From the NCBI GenBank assembly GCA_026165385.1, contig GCA_026165385.1_4524.1: DNA of 64,000 bases; one strand, 5' to 3'. Source of the DNA: a phage. Under the pieces are notes generated by a model, which saw only the letters and a program-made list of their open reading frames with translations, did not search any database and was not told the origin of the DNA. Below are positions 24,155-60,494 of the stretch, in pieces (positions within the stretch are counted from its first letter, which is position 1; the number at the start of each line of letters is the position of its first letter). The translations under genes and the position numbers were made by a program.

Positions 24155-26241
24155 TATCCTTGGACAAATTTAAACGGAACTGATTCCAAATCCATTAAAG
24201 ATGCTAACAATTTCAATCCTTTAGGAGCACTAGTTTTTTCTACAAATGAGGAGAACGATACCGGCTCATCTGATTCGATTTCACCCGTCATAGCAACCAC
24301 CTCGCCTGTTTCCATGAGAACATCACCATCATAAATGACAGCTTCGTCCAACTGGTCCGAGGACATAACTTCAGCTTGAATAAATTTAATGTTAGATTCT
24401 AAACCTGCACCAGTGTCAGATGACGCATCTGTAATTTTATTTATCTGCAAGAGAATGCCTCTAGGCAAAATAATTTCTTGCTCATTAGGGTGATTACTCA
24501 ACTGTCCCGGATAAATCACGTTAACTTTATGAGCGCCATCAATAGCCCATCCAACGTTAACACGGATTTGTTCTGGCGCATGCATAGCTGTTCTTACTTG
24601 ACTAGGAGAAATAGTAACACCTTCGTCGTTATTGTCAATGTTAAGCTCTTTGCGAACTTCTTCAGGAGCAAGTCCAAGGGCAACGTTCTCTTTAAACCCG
24701 CCGAAAATAATAGGAGCTAGTGAAGTGGAAACATAGTTTCTGAAGTAGAATACCTTATTTTTAACCATTGCTTCGTAAATAGGCATTCTGATAGACTGAG
24801 CTCTATATAATGTTAGTCCTTCAGGTAAACGGTCTCCATTTAAAAACGCCGAATCAAGACCATCAATAGCGCGTTTAACTTCATCTTCATCTGCAACATC
24901 ATAAAAATCCGGTTTATAACGGCCTAACAACATATTATTGATATCGGTATACGCAGAAGAGGCATATTCGCGAATAGCTCGTTTTTCAGCAACAGAGTAT
25001 TGTTTAGGGTCCCGATTCATTGTTATATTAAAGGTGCCTCTAGCCGATTCTCGTGCATAAGTATACATCACATTAGACAAGAACGCTGATTTACGTTGTT
25101 TCCAAGTTTTTTCAGATACTTCAGCTAAAACGTCGTCAGCCAGTTGGAAATTATCACGTCTAAAATCTTCAAACCATTCGTCTTTAATAGAGTCTGCAAT
25201 TTCATTTGCAGCTTCAACAAAAGCAGCTAATGCTTTAACAGATGTTGTTTTTTCAGTTTTAATTTTCTTAGCAAACTTTTCTAAAGTTGGCTTAATAACA
25301 CTACCATAAGAAACTTCATCAGCAAATCTAAAGGATTCATCAATACGATTATAAATCTTATTTTCAATATCAGCAACTAAAGTGCCTTTTGCTGTGGACG
25401 ATGCTTGGGCTAGTACGATTTCATATGCTTCGGGAAGTAATTCGGCTGTAGCTGGGCCACTAACTTCTTTAGCAGAATTTTCATATTTCTGGAATAACTC
25501 ACCTTCTTGGCGGTCAGCTTCTAAAGATTGACTTGCTGCAATAGCACGACGAGAAATTTTAGTACGAGCAATAACAGGCTTATCTTTACGTTTTTCTTCT
25601 ACATCAGCAATAGAACCAGCGATGGCCGTTTCTTTGGTGACCTTTTCGCCAGTCTTTTTACTCACATAAACTTCGCCAACATCAGAATCTACTTTCGTGT
25701 ACAACTCTGTGTTAATGTTAGGGATGCCTTTAATATCTTCAATGTTGGCATTTTTACGAACCATCATCACATAGGTGTGTTTACCTGTGAATTGATACAT
25801 TGCCGACAATACTTTAAAACGACCACCGGTTTTAGTAGAAACTAGACGAGCAAGAAGAGTTTGAAGTTGTTGTCCACGTCCTTTCAATTTCTTGGTAGGG
25901 AATCGGAACAGAACCGCATCCATACGAAGAGCTTTAACCTGTTCATATACTGTATTGAAAATGGTGTTGATTGCATCAATAGGAGCAGGACCAAGGCCAT
26001 TTTTTAATTCAGCGAGATTACCCTTTTCAGACAGACTCATAATAACAACATGAGCGTATTTATCGCCAAGTTTAACTTGTTTTACAGCATCGCCTTCAGA
26101 AAGGTAAGAGAATAAGCGAACTACAATATTTGTATCAACATCACCAATTTTCCAGACTTGTGGAACTTTAGCTTTAGGGTTCAAATTGACGACAGGAAGA
26201 CTGCCTTCAGATTCAAACACTTCATTTAATTGTTCAGACAT
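24154..26241 (-). CDS. alt: Alt ADP-ribosyltransferase
   Basis: 695 aa (T4 Alt 682 aa); position between gene 54 and gene 30; similarity to remembered T4 Alt. Confidence 0.88.
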   Translation of the reverse strand: MSEQLNEVFESEGSLPVVNLNPKAKVPQVWKIGDVDTNIVVRLFSYLSEGDAVKQVKLGDKYAHVVIMSLSEKGNLAELKNGLGPAPIDAINTIFNTVYEQVKALRMDAVLFRFPTKKLKGRGQQLQTLLARLVSTKTGGRFKVLSAMYQFTGKHTYVMMVRKNANIEDIKGIPNINTELYTKVDSDVGEVYVSKKTGEKVTKETAIAGSIADVEEKRKDKPVIARTKISRRAIAASQSLEADRQEGELFQKYENSAKEVSGPATAELLPEAYEIVLAQASSTAKGTLVADIENKIYNRIDESFRFADEVSYGSVIKPTLEKFAKKIKTEKTTSVKALAAFVEAANEIADSIKDEWFEDFRRDNFQLADDVLAEVSEKTWKQRKSAFLSNVMYTYARESARGTFNITMNRDPKQYSVAEKRAIREYASSAYTDINNMLLGRYKPDFYDVADEDEVKRAIDGLDSAFLNGDRLPEGLTLYRAQSIRMPIYEAMVKNKVFYFRNYVSTSLAPIIFGGFKENVALGLAPEEVRKELNIDNNDEGVTISPSQVRTAMHAPEQIRVNVGWAIDGAHKVNVIYPGQLSNHPNEQEIILPRGILLQINKITDASSDTGAGLESNIKFIQAEVMSSDQLDEAVIYDGDVLMETGEVVAMTGEIESDEPVSFSSFVEKTSAPKGLKLLASLMDLESVPFKFVQG

Positions 26242-26299: not shown

Positions 26300-26507
26300 A
26301 ATCCACAATCGGAAGCAAAGTACGATAAACTTCAAAATTAGGGCCTTTTTCATACCCATTAACGTTATCTACGAAAACCCGATACGAATTTTCATTAGGA
26401 AAATCTAATATAATCTGAGAGCAAGAGGTGGAAACATCTCCACCATCCTTCTTAGCTACAATAACTGTTTCTAAATAAGCTTTCATTATAAACCTGTCTG
26501 GGACCAC
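26298..26507 (-). CDS. Hypothetical small protein (alt.1 position)
   Basis: 69 aa ORF between ligase and alt; overlaps the ligase 3' end, so the true start may be internal. Confidence 0.4.
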   Translation of the reverse strand: MVPDRFIMKAYLETVIVAKKDGGDVSTSCSQIILDFPNENSYRVFVDNVNGYEKGPNFEVYRTLLPIVD

Positions 26508-27979
26508 GGTCCAAATACGTCTTCAAATGAATCCGCTTCTGTTTTATCAAAACGGAACCCTTTAATAATTGGAAGGAAAATACCTACAGTACCTTCACGG
26601 CCTTTAGAATGAACCCAACCATTGCATTCACAATCAGCAATACGTCCAATCAATTTACCTTCACGAGCTTCGGTCATTAATCGTTCACGGTCTAAATCAT
26701 GACGCTCGTCTAAAGGAATAAGAACCTTTACACCATCAACTGTTTTATGAGTTGTATCTTTAAACCCTGAACCACAATCGGTTGTAATACGACGACAACG
26801 TGATATGAGTTCGACACCACCTAATTTGTTAGGGTCTTTAGAGTGTTCATAGTATCCTACAACTTCTAAAGCGATATCAATAACTTCTTTAAATTTAATT
26901 AGGTTCTTAGAGCGTTTGTTTTCCCAATATGAATCACGGTTTTTAAGGATAATACCTTCAAGACCTTGGTCAACATATTTTTTATAAACCACTTTAGCTT
27001 CGTCAAGATTACGAACTAACTGATTTTCAATTGGCTCAATTCGCTTAAAGCCTTCAGCCATATTTTCAAGAGCAGCAAAACGAACATCGTATTTCTGACC
27101 TTTAATTTTGCCATCAGAATAGACTTCATCTAAAGGAACATAGTCCCAGGCTTGAAGAACCATACCTTCCGCTTCTTTAGGAGAAATAGTCCCTTGAAGA
27201 GATTTATTTGCTAAACCATTTGAAGTGCTACGGTCTGCAACCTGTACTTCTTCGGATTCTTCATTATCACCAAATAAGAACGACAGGTCATTTCCTGAGC
27301 TCGCAGCCTTTTTAATATCAAATGAATGGTAAACTAATTCACCGTCGATTAAAACCCCATTAGGGTGTCTTTCACGAGCTTCTTTAGTCATTTCCATTAG
27401 TTCATCCGCTAATAGAGTAAGACCATGGTATTCATTACCAGCACGAGAAAAGAATTGAACACCATCATCGCGAACTTCAGCGAAACAACGAGCACCATCG
27501 GCTTTTAATTGAGCAAATGCAGGCCATTTAATATTTTTAGTAATCAATTTCTCATCATATGCAGATGCTAACATCTGTGGTTGCAATTGAATAAGTCCAG
27601 GCCACACCTTATTCGCGATAGACACTGAAGCACCTACTTCAAGGTCGCGCATCATTACACGACGAAGGACTTCTACATCATCAGGTTTACCATCAGCGAT
27701 ATAACCCATGAGCTCTTTAATTGCAGCATTACCAGTGAGTTTACGAGTGGCTAATGTGAACTCAATAAAATCCAACATGTCATCTAATTCAAGAAGACCA
27801 TACGCTTGGGACCTTTCACCTGGTCCTGGCCATTTCTTAATATAATACTGGATACCACGTGCATATGTTAAACGATACACACGTTCAAGTAATTTGTTGT
27901 CCTTATTTTTCTTAAGGATTTCTTGTTTTGTTTTAGTAGAACCGATCGCAGCTATTTGGTTTAAAATATCTAAAATCAT
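26486..27979 (-). CDS. 30: ATP-dependent DNA ligase gp30
   Basis: 497 aa; matches T4 DNA ligase (MILxILNxIA...KADGARCFAEV...EGIILKN...). Confidence 0.97.
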   Translation of the reverse strand: MILDILNQIAAIGSTKTKQEILKKNKDNKLLERVYRLTYARGIQYYIKKWPGPGERSQAYGLLELDDMLDFIEFTLATRKLTGNAAIKELMGYIADGKPDDVEVLRRVMMRDLEVGASVSIANKVWPGLIQLQPQMLASAYDEKLITKNIKWPAFAQLKADGARCFAEVRDDGVQFFSRAGNEYHGLTLLADELMEMTKEARERHPNGVLIDGELVYHSFDIKKAASSGNDLSFLFGDNEESEEVQVADRSTSNGLANKSLQGTISPKEAEGMVLQAWDYVPLDEVYSDGKIKGQKYDVRFAALENMAEGFKRIEPIENQLVRNLDEAKVVYKKYVDQGLEGIILKNRDSYWENKRSKNLIKFKEVIDIALEVVGYYEHSKDPNKLGGVELISRCRRITTDCGSGFKDTTHKTVDGVKVLIPLDERHDLDRERLMTEAREGKLIGRIADCECNGWVHSKGREGTVGIFLPIIKGFRFDKTEADSFEDVFGPWSQTGL

Positions 27980-28245
27980 TTGATGTCCTCGATTTTGGTT
28001 ACGGTTCTATTATAAGCCACTTCATCTAGAAGCGATTTCAGCGTTTTCTGATAAGTGGTAATCCATTTACCAAGCCCTTCAACGTAGTATTCTGAAATGT
28101 AGATGAACCCTTGTTCAACACACTCTTTAAATATTTCTGCGTCTTTTACTGAACGAAACAATGGCCGGTCTCGAAAGAACATGTTAACGTGACCGTAGTC
28201 ACGTGTGGTATTTTTGCCATCTGTAATATCATGAACTACAAACAT
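27976..28245 (-). CDS. Hypothetical protein (30.1 position)
   Basis: 89 aa ORF, start overlapping the ligase stop. Confidence 0.5.
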   Translation of the reverse strand: MFVVHDITDGKNTTRDYGHVNMFFRDRPLFRSVKDAEIFKECVEQGFIYISEYYVEGLGKWITTYQKTLKSLLDEVAYNRTVTKIEDIK

Positions 28246-28254
28246 AATTAACCC

Positions 28255-29079
28255 TTAACAATTTATAGACCAAGTCCATTTAGACGAATCTAAAGGAAAG
28301 TTTTGAATCGTCCACCACGGCTGCATATCAGTTGGTCCTGGGGTTCGCCAGGTATATGGAGTACGTGTTGTCGAGGGGCCACCAATTTGATTAGGCCATG
28401 CGCCTGGACTTGTTGCACCAGATTCTTTAAGCAAATCAGCCAATCGTTTTAAAAGGTCTTCACGATCTGAATCTGAATTATGCCCAGGTGGAACCAAACG
28501 AGATTCAATATCATCCCACGTGTGTACACGTTGTGCAGTGCGAGGAATATCATCACGTTCACCACGAGCCAACCAATAAATCGGTACATTGAGAATTTCT
28601 GCCGCATGGTCACAGTGATGAGCTAAATCGTCAACGTAACAAATCACGTTATATTTTGTTTTAGCTAGTTCAAATAATTGTTCCTTTGAAGAATCATGTC
28701 CACACATCATTACTTCAGAAAAGGCGCCTGGGAACAAAGCATTCAAATTAAATTGTCTATTCAATCGAGCATCAATTGAATCACCTAGCGCCGTCACGGC
28801 TACAAAATTATAGTCTTCTTTTAGTTTATTGATAACTCGAAGAGCATCCGAATAAGGCGCTAAGTAACGAATAAAATCAGAGCGATTATATTTTTCTATT
28901 AATTGTTTACCAAGGTTATCGTCGGTATTGAATAGTTTACCAGGAGAAATAAATTTTTCATCCTGAATCATTTTTAAAATATGTTCTAATGGAAGATTAT
29001 ATTTTTGGGCAAAATAAGGAAGTCCAGATTGCCAGCTTAAACATACACCATCAATATCAGTCAAAATAGTAGGCTTCAT
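28255..29079 (-). CDS. HAD-like hydrolase-fold protein (30.2 position)
   Basis: 274 aa; N-terminal LTDIDGV motif like HAD motif I; Pro/Thr/Trp-rich C-terminal tail. Confidence 0.55.
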   Translation of the reverse strand: MKPTILTDIDGVCLSWQSGLPYFAQKYNLPLEHILKMIQDEKFISPGKLFNTDDNLGKQLIEKYNRSDFIRYLAPYSDALRVINKLKEDYNFVAVTALGDSIDARLNRQFNLNALFPGAFSEVMMCGHDSSKEQLFELAKTKYNVICYVDDLAHHCDHAAEILNVPIYWLARGERDDIPRTAQRVHTWDDIESRLVPPGHNSDSDREDLLKRLADLLKESGATSPGAWPNQIGGPSTTRTPYTWRTPGPTDMQPWWTIQNFPLDSSKWTWSINC

Positions 29080-29543
29080 AAAGAGTCTCTTAATAGGTTT
29101 AACACATCAATAAATTCAGCTTCAGTTAGTATTGTATCATCTTTTGTTAGACCACTAGCCATGCTGTGCTTCAAAATTTTTCCTTTAGAGGCTTGTAAGG
29201 CATCACGAAACCCCTTGTTTTGGATCGCGGCTTCAAAATATGCATTTGTGTATAATTCTTTCCACGCTTCGGAGTATCTTGAAAATGGAACTCCTAACCA
29301 GAAGAGAGTCCCACGGTCCTGAGCTCTTGCATAAGACCTTCCAGCTTGCTGTGCAGCCAATCCATACAACCCAAATATACGTCTTTGTTGTTCAACATTT
29401 TTCACCTTACATCCTTGGAGAAATCCTTCAAGACCTCCGAATTGAATACCATCCATAACAAAAGGCCATTGAGCAAAGTTACTTAATGCACATGACGGCC
29501 ACTTGAAATTACTTCTTATTTCTAATTCAGACATCTTTAACAC
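29076..29543 (-). CDS. NADAR (YbiA-like) domain protein, 30.3 homologue
   Basis: 155 aa; NADAR-family motifs (FxxxSNF, GxxFxxxEQ-like); T4 gp30.3 belongs to this family. Confidence 0.7.
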   Translation of the reverse strand: MLKMSELEIRSNFKWPSCALSNFAQWPFVMDGIQFGGLEGFLQGCKVKNVEQQRRIFGLYGLAAQQAGRSYARAQDRGTLFWLGVPFSRYSEAWKELYTNAYFEAAIQNKGFRDALQASKGKILKHSMASGLTKDDTILTEAEFIDVLNLLRDSL

Positions 29544-29745
29544 TTATAATTTCAACATCAGCCCAATGACCGTATCCAGGTATACGGTCTTCGATAGATA
29601 AATTTCCATCATTTTTAGGCATTTTAATTGACGTAACGTATGGTTCTAAACGGTTTTCTGCATAATATGGAAAAACGTCAGTCACACGATAAGTAACTTC
29701 GATCATTTCTGTACCAAACAATTTCTGCATCAGTTTCTTAAACAT
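29527..29745 (-). CDS. Hypothetical protein
   Basis: 72 aa ORF in the 30.x early cluster. Confidence 0.45.
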   Translation of the reverse strand: MFKKLMQKLFGTEMIEVTYRVTDVFPYYAENRLEPYVTSIKMPKNDGNLSIEDRIPGYGHWADVEIISVKDV

Positions 29746-29746
29746 A

Positions 29747-29941
29747 TTATCCTCGCTTTAAACATTTGATTACAGACAGTTCTTGGCTCATGCGGACGTC
29801 TTCAGTTCCATCAACCCACAGGACTGCATAGGCTTCTTTAATTACATTACCGTTAATTTTAAAAGCAGGTAAAACCTTTGAAATCATTCCGGGGATACCT
29901 ATACCTTTTAACTGGACAGTTTGTGATAAGAATAGTTGCAT
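29747..29941 (-). CDS. Hypothetical protein
   Basis: 64 aa ORF in the 30.x early cluster. Confidence 0.45.
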   Translation of the reverse strand: MQLFLSQTVQLKGIGIPGMISKVLPAFKINGNVIKEAYAVLWVDGTEDVRMSQELSVIKCLKRG

Positions 29942-30228
29942 TAGAACCTCATCTGAAATCCGTGTGATTTAACATTACCGCCATAGATGTCAGAGGTATT
30001 GACTTCACGTGCGGCGCTAGGGTCGATGTTAATATCATGGTTGAGCTTAGTGATTGCTAGGGTGTCACGACCATTGACTGTACGGAATTCTACTGGACAA
30101 ACCACATCAGCATAAGCCTTAATGGATTCACGAGTGGGCTGTTTGTCGGCAGGAACATCTTTACCTGCTTTAGAGAAAACAACTTCACAGAAATTTTTAC
30201 GAGTATCGAAATAAGTGGTCATAAACAT
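29941..30228 (-). CDS. Hypothetical protein
   Basis: Start placed at MFMTTYF with GAGGA 7 nt upstream; the longer track ORF (to 30261) would include the terminator hairpin. Confidence 0.5.
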   Translation of the reverse strand: MFMTTYFDTRKNFCEVVFSKAGKDVPADKQPTRESIKAYADVVCPVEFRTVNGRDTLAITKLNHDINIDPSAAREVNTSDIYGGNVKSHGFQMRF

Positions 30229-30242
30229 AATATTTTCCTCAA

Positions 30243-30260
30243 TGGAGGCCGAAGCCTCCA
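30243..30260 (-). terminator. UUCG-tetraloop terminator between ORFs 30270..30635 and 29941..30228
   Basis: TGGAGGC-CGAA-GCCTCCA flanked by a T-run. Confidence 0.65.
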
Positions 30261-30269
30261 TTTTTAAGA

Positions 30270-30635
30270 TTAGATATCGAATTCGTTCAGAACTACATCA
30301 AAGATTGCTTCCAGGTGTTCAGGTTTAGCTCGGTTACTCAGGATATGACGAATCCAAGTTTTAACCAGAAGTTTACGATTAACACCATTCCAGCAAGGAT
30401 GAGTACCTAAATCACGTTGACGGAAATCGTCATCTAATGCAATTTTGAAGTTGGAACCTTCCATCGTGATTGAAACCGTGATGCCATTTTCAAATCGCAT
30501 ATAAACGTAATTAGGAGTCATATACTGCTCAATTTCACATACTGAACCATTTTTATGCTTCCACAAACAAACCGTATCGATAGAACCAGCGATACCGTTA
30601 GAAACGTATTTGCGTTCGAAGTTGGTGTAGTTCAT
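30270..30635 (-). CDS. Hypothetical protein
   Basis: Start placed at MNYTNFERKY with GGAGA Shine-Dalgarno and an early promoter upstream. Confidence 0.5.
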   Translation of the reverse strand: MNYTNFERKYVSNGIAGSIDTVCLWKHKNGSVCEIEQYMTPNYVYMRFENGITVSITMEGSNFKIALDDDFRQRDLGTHPCWNGVNRKLLVKTWIRHILSNRAKPEHLEAIFDVVLNEFDI

Positions 30636-30676
30636 TTTATTCTCCAGATGTTTAAGTTGTTTGTTGGTACAGGTAT

Positions 30677-30705
30677 ATAATAACATATCCTGTACCAAAG
30701 TAAAC
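30677..30705 (-). promoter_or_regulatory. Early-type promoter (GTTTAC-N17-TATTAT) upstream of ORF 30270..30635
   Basis: Minus-strand motif; the -10 is flanked by an 8-bp inverted repeat GGTACAGG/CCTGTACC. Confidence 0.5.
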
Positions 30706-30708
30706 ATT

Positions 30709-31080
30709 TTATTTGATTTTTGTCCACTTAGCTGAATCAATAACACCTTTTGCTTTAATCTTCTCGATTAATGACTCTGCGCGATTTCTGGCATTTTCGT
30801 ACCATACAACATCTTCAGAGTAACCAGTTTCTTCATCTTCATAAGTTTTAGAACGAATACAGCCATAAACTGTAGAATTCAGACGGTAAATTTCACCAGT
30901 GAAAAAGTTTTCGATTTCGATATGATAACAAAAATCGTCTGAAGGGCCATCAGGAGTTGTACAATAAACCACATCACCTTGAACTGAACGAACCATCCAC
31001 TGTAACTCGTTAACAACTTGAGATTTATATCCATCATGGTCACGGCATTTAATTGTAGCATTTAAATTGATAATGTTCAT
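30709..31080 (-). CDS. Hypothetical protein
   Basis: 123 aa ORF with Shine-Dalgarno (GGAGAATAAA) and an early promoter upstream. Confidence 0.5.
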   Translation of the reverse strand: MNIINLNATIKCRDHDGYKSQVVNELQWMVRSVQGDVVYCTTPDGPSDDFCYHIEIENFFTGEIYRLNSTVYGCIRSKTYEDEETGYSEDVVWYENARNRAESLIEKIKAKGVIDSAKWTKIK

Positions 31081-31121
31081 TTTATTCTCCGGCTGTTTTA
31101 TTGATTAGATGGTACAAGTCT

Positions 31122-31150
31122 ATAGTAACACATCCTACAGGAGAGTAAAC
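31122..31150 (-). promoter_or_regulatory. Early-type promoter (GTTTAC-N17-TACTAT) upstream of ORF 30709..31080
   Basis: Minus-strand motif. Confidence 0.55.
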
Positions 31151-31186
31151 ATCTTTTTAAACTTTTTCTGCCCTAAACGCACAAAA

Positions 31187-31204
31187 GGGAGACCGAAGTC
31201 TCCC
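31187..31204 (-). terminator. UUCG-tetraloop terminator downstream of the 59 aa basic ORF
   Basis: GGGAGAC-CGAA-GTCTCCC; the same 18-mer as at 45949 and the reverse complement of 8169. Confidence 0.7.
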
Positions 31205-31209
31205 TAAAA

Positions 31210-31389
31210 TTATGCAACAACCTTTCCAAAACGAGAAGCATCATCTCGAAGAACTGCACGTGCTCTGCGCATGATCTTCTCAACTGTTTGATTAATACGA
31301 GAGTTCGACCCACGCTTGTATCCAGCGCGTTTAGAGGTACCATCAACTTTCTTTTCAACTGCTTTCTTTGCTTTAGCTTGTTTTGCCAT
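31210..31389 (-). CDS. Small lysine-rich basic protein, 59 aa (absent from the ORF track; 30.9 position)
   Basis: Own translation: MAKQAKAKKAVEKKVDGTSKRAGYKRGSNSRINQTVEKIMRRARAVLRDDASRFGKVVA; followed by a UUCG hairpin terminator. Confidence 0.45.
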   Translation of the reverse strand: MAKQAKAKKAVEKKVDGTSKRAGYKRGSNSRINQTVEKIMRRARAVLRDDASRFGKVVA

Positions 31390-31684
31390 TATAAATTCTC
31401 TTTAAATGAAAATGCAGGACTTATTGACATTGCCTGCGCAAGCCCTCAACGGGAACATAGGTTTTGGATATTTAACGACAGGATAACCATAAACCTCGTC
31501 ATCATACCAACCACGACTTAGACAGATAACCTTTTTCTGACGCGTGATAGTACAAAATACATTCAAGAGGTACACCGTAAAACTGCCGGGGTCTTAAAAC
31601 TATAATGATTCGCAAATCATTAATCAGACAGTTCGACGGCTCCTCGATTTTCTAGCCGCACTAAGGTAGCGAATCACCTAAAAC

Positions 31685-31933
31685 TTATTTAAGGGTAATA
31701 ACAAAATGACGTACTGCTTTACGAGCTGCAGAAGCCAAAGGCTTAGCATATTTCAGTTCATCTTTTGCTTCCAGTTCAGAGGCCAAAGCTGCCTGTACCG
31801 GGTTCAGATGTTTGAAATAACGCAAGATTTCCAGTGCTTCGGCTTCAACATCAATCGACGCGCCGTAGTTTTCGTGACCGTTATTCCATGCGTTTCGTTG
31901 CAGTTCAAGAGCGTGTTGTAATTGTTTAATCAT
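31685..31933 (-). CDS. rIII: Probable rIII lysis-inhibition accessory protein
   Basis: 82 aa ORF immediately downstream of gene 31 as in T4; size matches T4 rIII (82 aa). Confidence 0.6.
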   Translation of the reverse strand: MIKQLQHALELQRNAWNNGHENYGASIDVEAEALEILRYFKHLNPVQAALASELEAKDELKYAKPLASAARKAVRHFVITLK

Positions 31934-32049
31934 TTTAAATTCTCAATTCGAGATAATATTTAGTAGCCACGTTCGTCTGAATTTCACCTTCTTTCGACAG
32001 GTCTCTCAGTTGTAGGCTACCGCTTAGAAGAGTGTTCTCTTCATATAGT

Positions 32050-32057
32050 TATTTATA
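32050..32057 (-). promoter_or_regulatory. Possible late promoter (minus strand) upstream of rIII
   Basis: Plus-strand TATTTATA immediately after the gene 31 stop. Confidence 0.4.
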
Positions 32058-32390
32058 TCACTTATAAAGACACGGAATAGCTTTATAGTGGCATGTTACG
32101 AATTTCTGTTTAATTTCTTTAGGTTGTTTAAGTCCCAAAGCCACAAATGGATGTGGAACATTTCGAATTTGTCCAACTGGTAGTGGAGTCAAATCACCGA
32201 CTTCAACAAAACCTTCAGGAACATCAGGACCTACAGAATGAACTACACATAGTTCAGGAACTTCACCTTGAACACGTTTACCAATCACAAGTCCTGATTC
32301 GGTAACTTCTTCATCACCTGCTTGAGCGGGTTCAGAAACCAGAATGACATATTCACCAACAGCACGAATTGGGAGTTGTACTTCAGACAT
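32058..32390 (-). CDS. 31: Co-chaperonin gp31 (GroES analogue)
   Basis: 110 aa; near-identical to T4 gp31 ([30 protein letters not shown]...[11 protein letters not shown]). Confidence 0.95.
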
Positions 32391-35417: not shown

Positions 35418-36503
<1,086 letters not shown>

Positions 36504-38269: not shown

Positions 38270-39403
<1,134 letters not shown>

Positions 39404-60043: not shown

Positions 60044-60259
60044 TCAGTGTTGATTGTAAACAGCTTTTTCTACACTTTTAACGTAATCAGTGTAGTCTTC
60101 CTGTTCATACGAGTGTAAGGCCAAGAACGTGGCTAATAGTTCATTATAGACTAAAGCCTCACGCTCACGTTCTGCCTCTACTACGTTCTGTAGATTATGG
60201 CTCATATCATTCCTTATAACTATCAATGTAGTCCTGTATGTCAAAGAATGACATTTCAT
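60044..60259 (-). CDS. Hypothetical protein
   Basis: 71 aa ORF; the true start may be internal (MSHNLQ). Confidence 0.4.
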   Translation of the reverse strand: MKCHSLTYRTTLIVIRNDMSHNLQNVVEAEREREALVYNELLATFLALHSYEQEDYTDYVKSVEKAVYNQH

Positions 60260-60494
60260 ATTCTAGGACATTAAGAGCCCGTTCTTCAGTATAGTCAGAA
60301 CCAAATACGATAGTGATTTCACCAGGCTTCATGTGATTGAAATCGACACTAAAAGGAATACGAGAACATACTTCGTCTGCCATATCTACAACAACACTAC
60401 GATACACTTCTCGGTTAACCTGATAAAGCTCTGCAAGTTCTTCACATCGAATAACAAGTTCAGTGGCAGGATTTTCTTTGATTTTAGTAAGCAT
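60207..60494 (-). CDS. Small acidic protein, possible Arn (anti-restriction nuclease) homologue
   Basis: 95 aa, acidic; position near asiA like T4 arn (92 aa). Sequence identity was not verified. Confidence 0.35.
   Translation of the reverse strand: MLTKIKENPATELVIRCEELAELYQVNREVYRSVVVDMADEVCSRIPFSVDFNHMKPGEITIVFGSDYTEERALNVLEYEMSFFDIQDYIDSYKE

Follow-up and report, generated by a model that had tools for sequence, protein, structure and literature searches.

A short gene in the early 30.x cluster of a T4-like phage raises the question of whether it encodes an enzyme that strips ADP-ribose from guanine in DNA, and whether the phage that carries it would withstand host toxins of the DarT type. 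The window analyzed is a single stretch of phage DNA of 64,000 nucleotides. Work published between 2023 and 2025 has already established the function of the gene, its catalytic residues and a natural loss-of-function allele, and nothing on the mechanism is new here.

Gene 30.3 and its surroundings

An ORF of 155 codons spans exactly 29076..29543 in the ORF listing of the window, at the coordinates of the original prediction; it lies on the minus strand, which the prediction did not give, and the real gene is better taken as slightly shorter. The figure of 155 amino acids counts from the furthest-upstream GTG (29543), a codon that is not conserved, with T4 having GCA in its place, and the annotated start of the T4, RB69 and Bas46 orthologues is an ATG matching window position 29534. 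The gene, adfN (the gene 30.3 orthologue), is therefore best placed at 29076..29534 (-), encoding 152 amino acids; the upstream extension of the mechanical ORF (29535..29543, minus strand) lies within the 3' end of gene 30.4 and probably contributes nothing to the adfN product. The adfN ATG overlaps the stop codon of the gene 30.4 homologue (ATGTCTGA), which occupies 29527..29745 (-), encodes 72 amino acids, matches phrog_2042 and has 51% identity to T4 gp30.4, and the two genes are therefore probably translationally coupled. At the other end, the adfN stop codon is overlapped by the ATG of the gene 30.2 homologue (ATGA), a 274-amino acid ORF at 28255..29079 (-) that matches phrog_420 and has 66% identity to T4 gp30.2. 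Such overlapping starts and stops are the packing typical of the T4 early polycistronic cluster. Consensus scans of 27900-32100 returned 11 promoter-like sites versus 12.6 expected and 1 terminator-like site versus 2.5 expected, none above chance, so that the expression assumed for adfN, which would be early and within the polycistronic 30.x cluster, rests on synteny with T4.

The protein matches Pfam PF08010 (Phage_30_3) with E=3e-68 and 228.4 bits against a gathering cutoff of 36, over profile positions 1-138/138, and also matches phrog_652. It is identical to T4 gp30.3 (NP_049816) at 147/152 residues (97%), without gaps, and shares 98% of its residues with the Bas46 orthologue. Its neighbours match those of T4 in order and strand (30.4-30.3-30.2), and AdfN(T4) has the same length, start and stop and the same place, flanked by 30.4 and 30.2 downstream of the ligase cluster. 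The 1511 phage records with a homologue belong mostly to Straboviridae infecting many hosts, and phages of Sinorhizobium, Ralstonia and Brevundimonas stand out as outliers; the dN/dS values for the gene (0.05 versus T4, 0.06 versus Bas46) indicate strong purifying selection. The PF08010 match, the breadth of the family and the low dN/dS together mark the gene as more than a chance ORF. Judged from its sequence, the gene is orthologous to T4 30.3 (adfN, for anti-DarT factor NADAR) and intact, and its product can be described as a putative full-length 152-amino acid phage-type NADAR DNA ADP-ribosylglycohydrolase with E36, K43, H123 and a C-terminal helix (138-151). In the closest public genomes the orthologue is labelled "hypothetical protein"; naming it adfN, which can be done with confidence, is a gain for annotation.

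Escherichia phage ChristianSchoenbein (Bas46), a Mosigvirus, shares 98.5% identity with the 3-kb neighbourhood of the gene, and the window between 23501 and 29750 has 96.6% nucleotide identity to RB69, placing the phage in the RB69 lineage. T4 gene order is kept from gene 54 to gene 52. Comparison with T4 located alt (24157-26235, minus strand), ligase gene 30 (26489-27979), pseT (35420-36316, minus strand) and rnlA (38273-39394, minus strand), and also 30.1-30.9, rIII, 31, cd, alc, denA and nrdA in the region. The original prediction had listed alt, pseT, rnlA and a possible arn as neighbours of the gene; the first three are present on the same strand as adfN, but arn could not be confirmed, as T4 Arn found no match by tblastn against the whole window. 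An ORF at 60207-60494 (-), in the arn-syntenic position downstream of asiA and about 31 kb from adfN, has 21% identity over 38 amino acids to T4 Arn, with E=0.008 in a single pairwise comparison, and neither this ORF nor the others between asiA and motA (six ORFs) matched Pfam. The other anti-DarT factors, AdfA (61.2) and AdfM (tk.4), are not encoded in the window. Upstream of gene 30.4 lies a gene 30.5 homologue (29747-29941, minus strand; 64 amino acids) that matches phrog_1690 and has 67% identity to T4 gp30.5; in RB69 the alignment is gapped here and no such gene is annotated.

NADAR fold and catalytic residues

Assignment to the NADAR superfamily had been proposed from hallmarks seen in the window sequence, with a direct NADAR/DUF1768 HMM search as the suggested check. 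That search was negative: PF08719 (NADAR/DUF1768) has no direct match to the window sequence even at E<=10, and neither NCBIfam nor a single-sequence phmmer search of the PDB returned anything for the protein. The lack of a direct PF08719 match arises because Pfam keeps the gp30.3 proteins in a separate family, PF08010, and it is no evidence against homology. Among members of PF08010, 9/59 match PF08719 on their own (best E=1.5e-7), and several proteins of the gp30.3 family are named "YbiA (DUF1768 family)" by JGI. A profile built from 60 family members matches E. coli YbiA (PDB 2b3w) with E=0.0013 over the catalytic motif, aligning LSNFAQWPFVMDG......EGFLQGCK of the phage family with FSNFAAWPIKVDG......EHYFQAQK of YbiA; the motif SNFA-WP...DG......E-F-Q--K is thus aligned with the E. 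coli protein, and E36 corresponds to the Glu of the YbiA motif. The three-dimensional fold of YbiA and other NADARs is also found in the predicted structure of the window protein, a high-confidence AlphaFold model made with a 59-sequence alignment (an alignment-free model, with pLDDT 40.3, was discarded). By transitive HMM matches, the YbiA profile and the predicted fold, the gp30.3 proteins, that of T4 included, are assigned to the NADAR superfamily, and the original reading of NADAR hallmarks is upheld on this broader footing.

The predicted catalytic residues E36, K43 and H123 are invariant in 60/60 aligned family members, down to 35% identity. E36 and K43 are the residues that were mutated in AdfN(T4) (PMC11825919), and they stand seven residues apart, the same spacing as E88/K95 of the E. 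coli C7 NADAR (PMC11543638). H123 ends the last predicted beta-strand (120-123 in the model), where published comparisons place His in phage NADARs, Glu in YbiA and Asp in DarG1 (PMC11125620, PMC11543638). An intact C-terminal helix, lost in RB69, is needed for full anti-DarTG1 activity (PMC11825919); residues 138-152 are present in the window protein, identical to T4 and predicted to form the terminal helix, with no frameshift in the gene.

Probable reversal of DarT1 modification and the state of the allele

Schuller et al. (2023, PMC11543638) reported that NADARs reverse guanine ADP-ribosylation by DarT1 and remarked on the His variant in phage NADARs, and T4 gp30.3 was found in vitro to hydrolyse G-ADPr and not T-ADPr (Toxins 2024, PMC11125620). 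With chimeras of T2/T4 and RB69, Johannesman et al. (Nat Commun 2025, PMC11825919) traced DarTG1 resistance to the 3' portion of 30.3, which they renamed adfN; T4 and T2 phages deleted for it form no plaques on DarTG1 hosts, and ectopic adfN(T4) fully rescues RB69 on DarTG1. In the same study, AdfN(T4) carrying E36A, K43A or an RB69-like truncation rescued RB69 only partially, purified wild-type AdfN cleared ADP-ribose from DNA while purified E36A failed, and AdfN did not counter DarTG2 and was fully effective only in T-even infections (PMC11825919). Independent transposon sequencing of T4 (2025 HIDEN-SEQ preprint) found 30.3/adfN conditionally essential on DarTG1, and a 2026 publication (PMC12945103) again has the T4 NADAR removing G-ADPr, with a summary table in which NADAR and YbiA-type NADARs are the only entries that reverse C-ADPr. 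The predicted removal of ADP-ribose from guanine in DNA by gp30.3 is therefore what assays of the T4 protein have shown (PMC11825919, PMC11125620), and the wider claim that it counters DarT-type toxins holds for DarT1 (guanine), through the published T4/T2 deletions and RB69 rescue, but not for DarT2 (thymine). In the methods of PMC11125620 the T4 gp30.3 construct is given as "residues 1-208", yet gp30.3 has 152 amino acids and 208 is the length of T4 gp61.2/AdfA; this may be a typographical error or a different construct.

Very probably, then, the window gene encodes a bare-core NADAR hydrolase that reverses the DarT1 guanine-N2-ADP-ribose modification on phage DNA during infection. A host carrying DarTG1 would release the DarT1 toxin during infection, the toxin would ADP-ribosylate guanines in phage DNA and block its replication, and AdfN, as a small single-domain hydrolase of the NADAR fold, would cleave the guanine-N2-ADP-ribose bond and restore replication. 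Cleavage would use the E36/K43 pair together with the phage-specific H123 in the last beta-strand, and AdfN would act as an "orphan antitoxin", by enzymatic reversal of the modification and not by binding of the toxin. The basis for this here is orthology, intactness, the NADAR fold, the catalytic residues and purifying selection, with the function taken from the 97%-identical T4 protein and the phenotype from 98%-identical Bas46. Bas35-Bas47 are all DarTG1-resistant (PMC11825919). The two most closely related to RB69 and to the window, Bas46 and Bas47, have AdfA in its inactive R164 form (PMC11825919), so that their resistance is ascribed to full-length AdfN. By analogy, the window allele would be active and the phage DarTG1-resistant.

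RB69, whose allele is naturally truncated and poorly active, brings in an alternative, that the window allele is inactive or attenuated like that of RB69 through substitutions, notably S57Y, leaving the phage DarTG1-sensitive despite a full-length ORF. RB69 belongs to the same genus, its gp30.3 gene (NP_861905) is the closest nucleotide sequence across most of the gene, and the proteins are 97% identical over residues 1-137; the window comes from a lineage in which a defective allele is known. The defect in RB69 comes from an extra T (ACTAACTTGAAG versus ACTAACTGAAG), by which the frame is shifted, the protein ends at 137 and the helix 138-151 is lost; the window allele is without this extra T and its frame runs intact through the full 152 amino acids to the stop codon of T4. 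Five substitutions distinguish it from the T4 protein (R11K, S57Y, P89E, V120I and I125M), all at variable positions, and every invariant position of the family is kept. The one most open to suspicion is Y57 (TCT -> TAT, codon at 29364-29366 on the minus strand), which is unique among the 60 aligned gp30.3-family proteins and directly precedes the invariant G58 at the start of helix 58-66. The position is not catalytic, however, and is a tolerant one, with mostly V, S or I, and also A, H, T and F, among homologues. Truncated and fused gp30.3 variants in public phage genomes lend the alternative some further plausibility, but the low dN/dS speaks for a lineage under purifying selection and the protein is modelled with high confidence as folded. 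An attenuated allele is accordingly very unlikely, and from the intact allele one would predict that this phage, although RB69-like, escapes DarTG1, as RB69 does not.

A role as a YbiA-type N-glycosidase acting on small molecules, be it reactive intermediates of the riboflavin pathway or some other nucleotide metabolite, and serving phage nucleotide metabolism rather than counter-defence, is likewise very unlikely, given that the last-strand residue is His and not the Glu of YbiA (PMC11125620), that the T4 orthologue has both a DarTG1 genetic phenotype and DNA de-ADP-ribosylation activity, and that YbiA itself removes G-ADPr in vitro (PMC11125620). E. coli YbiA (PDB 2b3w) and a Phytophthora NADAR (PDB 8bau), which have 18-20% identity to the window protein and Glu at the position of H123, are not phage counter-defence proteins, YbiA having its role as an N-glycosidase of riboflavin intermediates.

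The DNA-directed hydrolase favored here also differs from the DarG1 antitoxins. The NADARs of E. coli C7 and G. lovleyi (PDB 8bat) have 13% identity to the window protein, Asp in place of His in the last strand, and extra N-terminal elements that the phage protein, as a bare core, lacks (PMC12945103). DarG1 pairs with a toxin gene, whereas the phage gene stands beside none: no ART toxin is encoded next to adfN, its neighbours being the 30.4 and 30.2 homologues, and the T4 protein gives no protection of uninfected cells from DarT1. By its gene context, adfN encodes an antitoxin-like enzyme that is an "orphan", outside any toxin-antitoxin pair.

Possible partners, sequence exchange and variants of the gene

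The action of AdfN in vivo has an unexplained requirement beyond simple hydrolysis. This follows from the failure of AdfN(T4) in uninfected E. coli, which it does not rescue from DarT1 in either of two studies (PMC11125620, PMC11825919), and from its barely rescuing T5 or Bas25 (PMC11825919). Since AdfN is fully effective only in T-even infection, a phage-encoded partner is conceivable, and gp30.2 or gp30.4 would be the candidates, processing the released ADP-ribose or targeting AdfN to replicating phage DNA. The idea is improbable as it stands, deriving from the overlapping start and stop codons and from linkage of 30.2 and 30.3 in some phages. The gp30.2 homologue starts MKPTILTDIDGV, which is motif I of the HAD superfamily (DIDGV; DxDGV), and has sub-threshold HAD matches to TIGR01428 (E=0.095) and to the 5'(3')-deoxyribonucleotidase 2jao (E=0.82). 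Gene 30.2 is found no more than about 1 kb from 30.3 in T4-like phages of Acinetobacter, Klebsiella and Aeromonas, but the linkage is absent in KVP40-like, phiM9 and RSP15 phages. With only the DxDGV motif, non-significant HAD matches and a linkage that is not universal, gp30.2 was not adopted as a functional partner in the mechanism.

At the nucleotide level, adfN forms an island of likeness to T4 in a Mosigvirus background. Over 28950-29550 its identity to T4 is 87-96%, with flanks at 45-80%, and the ligase, 30.1, 30.2, 30.4, 30.5 and 30.8 proteins are only 38-67% identical to those of T4. Similar islands of T4 identity occur at 30.7, 30.9, rIII and gene 31. With dS=0.47 and the dN/dS of 0.05 against T4, strong constraint on the protein would account for the adfN island better than a very recent horizontal transfer; the mosaic distribution of SNPs across the window, RB69, Bas46 and T4 suggests recombination within the gene.

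A further ORF annotated in T4 inside gene 30.3, 30.3' (75 amino acids, in another frame), corresponds to window positions 29171-29398 (-). Codon 35 of this frame is a stop in the window, RB69 and Bas46; 30.3' lacks conservation in Mosigvirus and is perhaps not a genuine gene. Among public T4-like genomes, shortened forms of gp30.3 occur in phage SV76 (109 amino acids) and UGJNEcP4 (91 amino acids), and others carry gp30.3 fused with PF11097 or with the 30.8 domain PF06019. It seems, then, that RB69 is not the only phage in which adfN has been naturally lost or rearranged.
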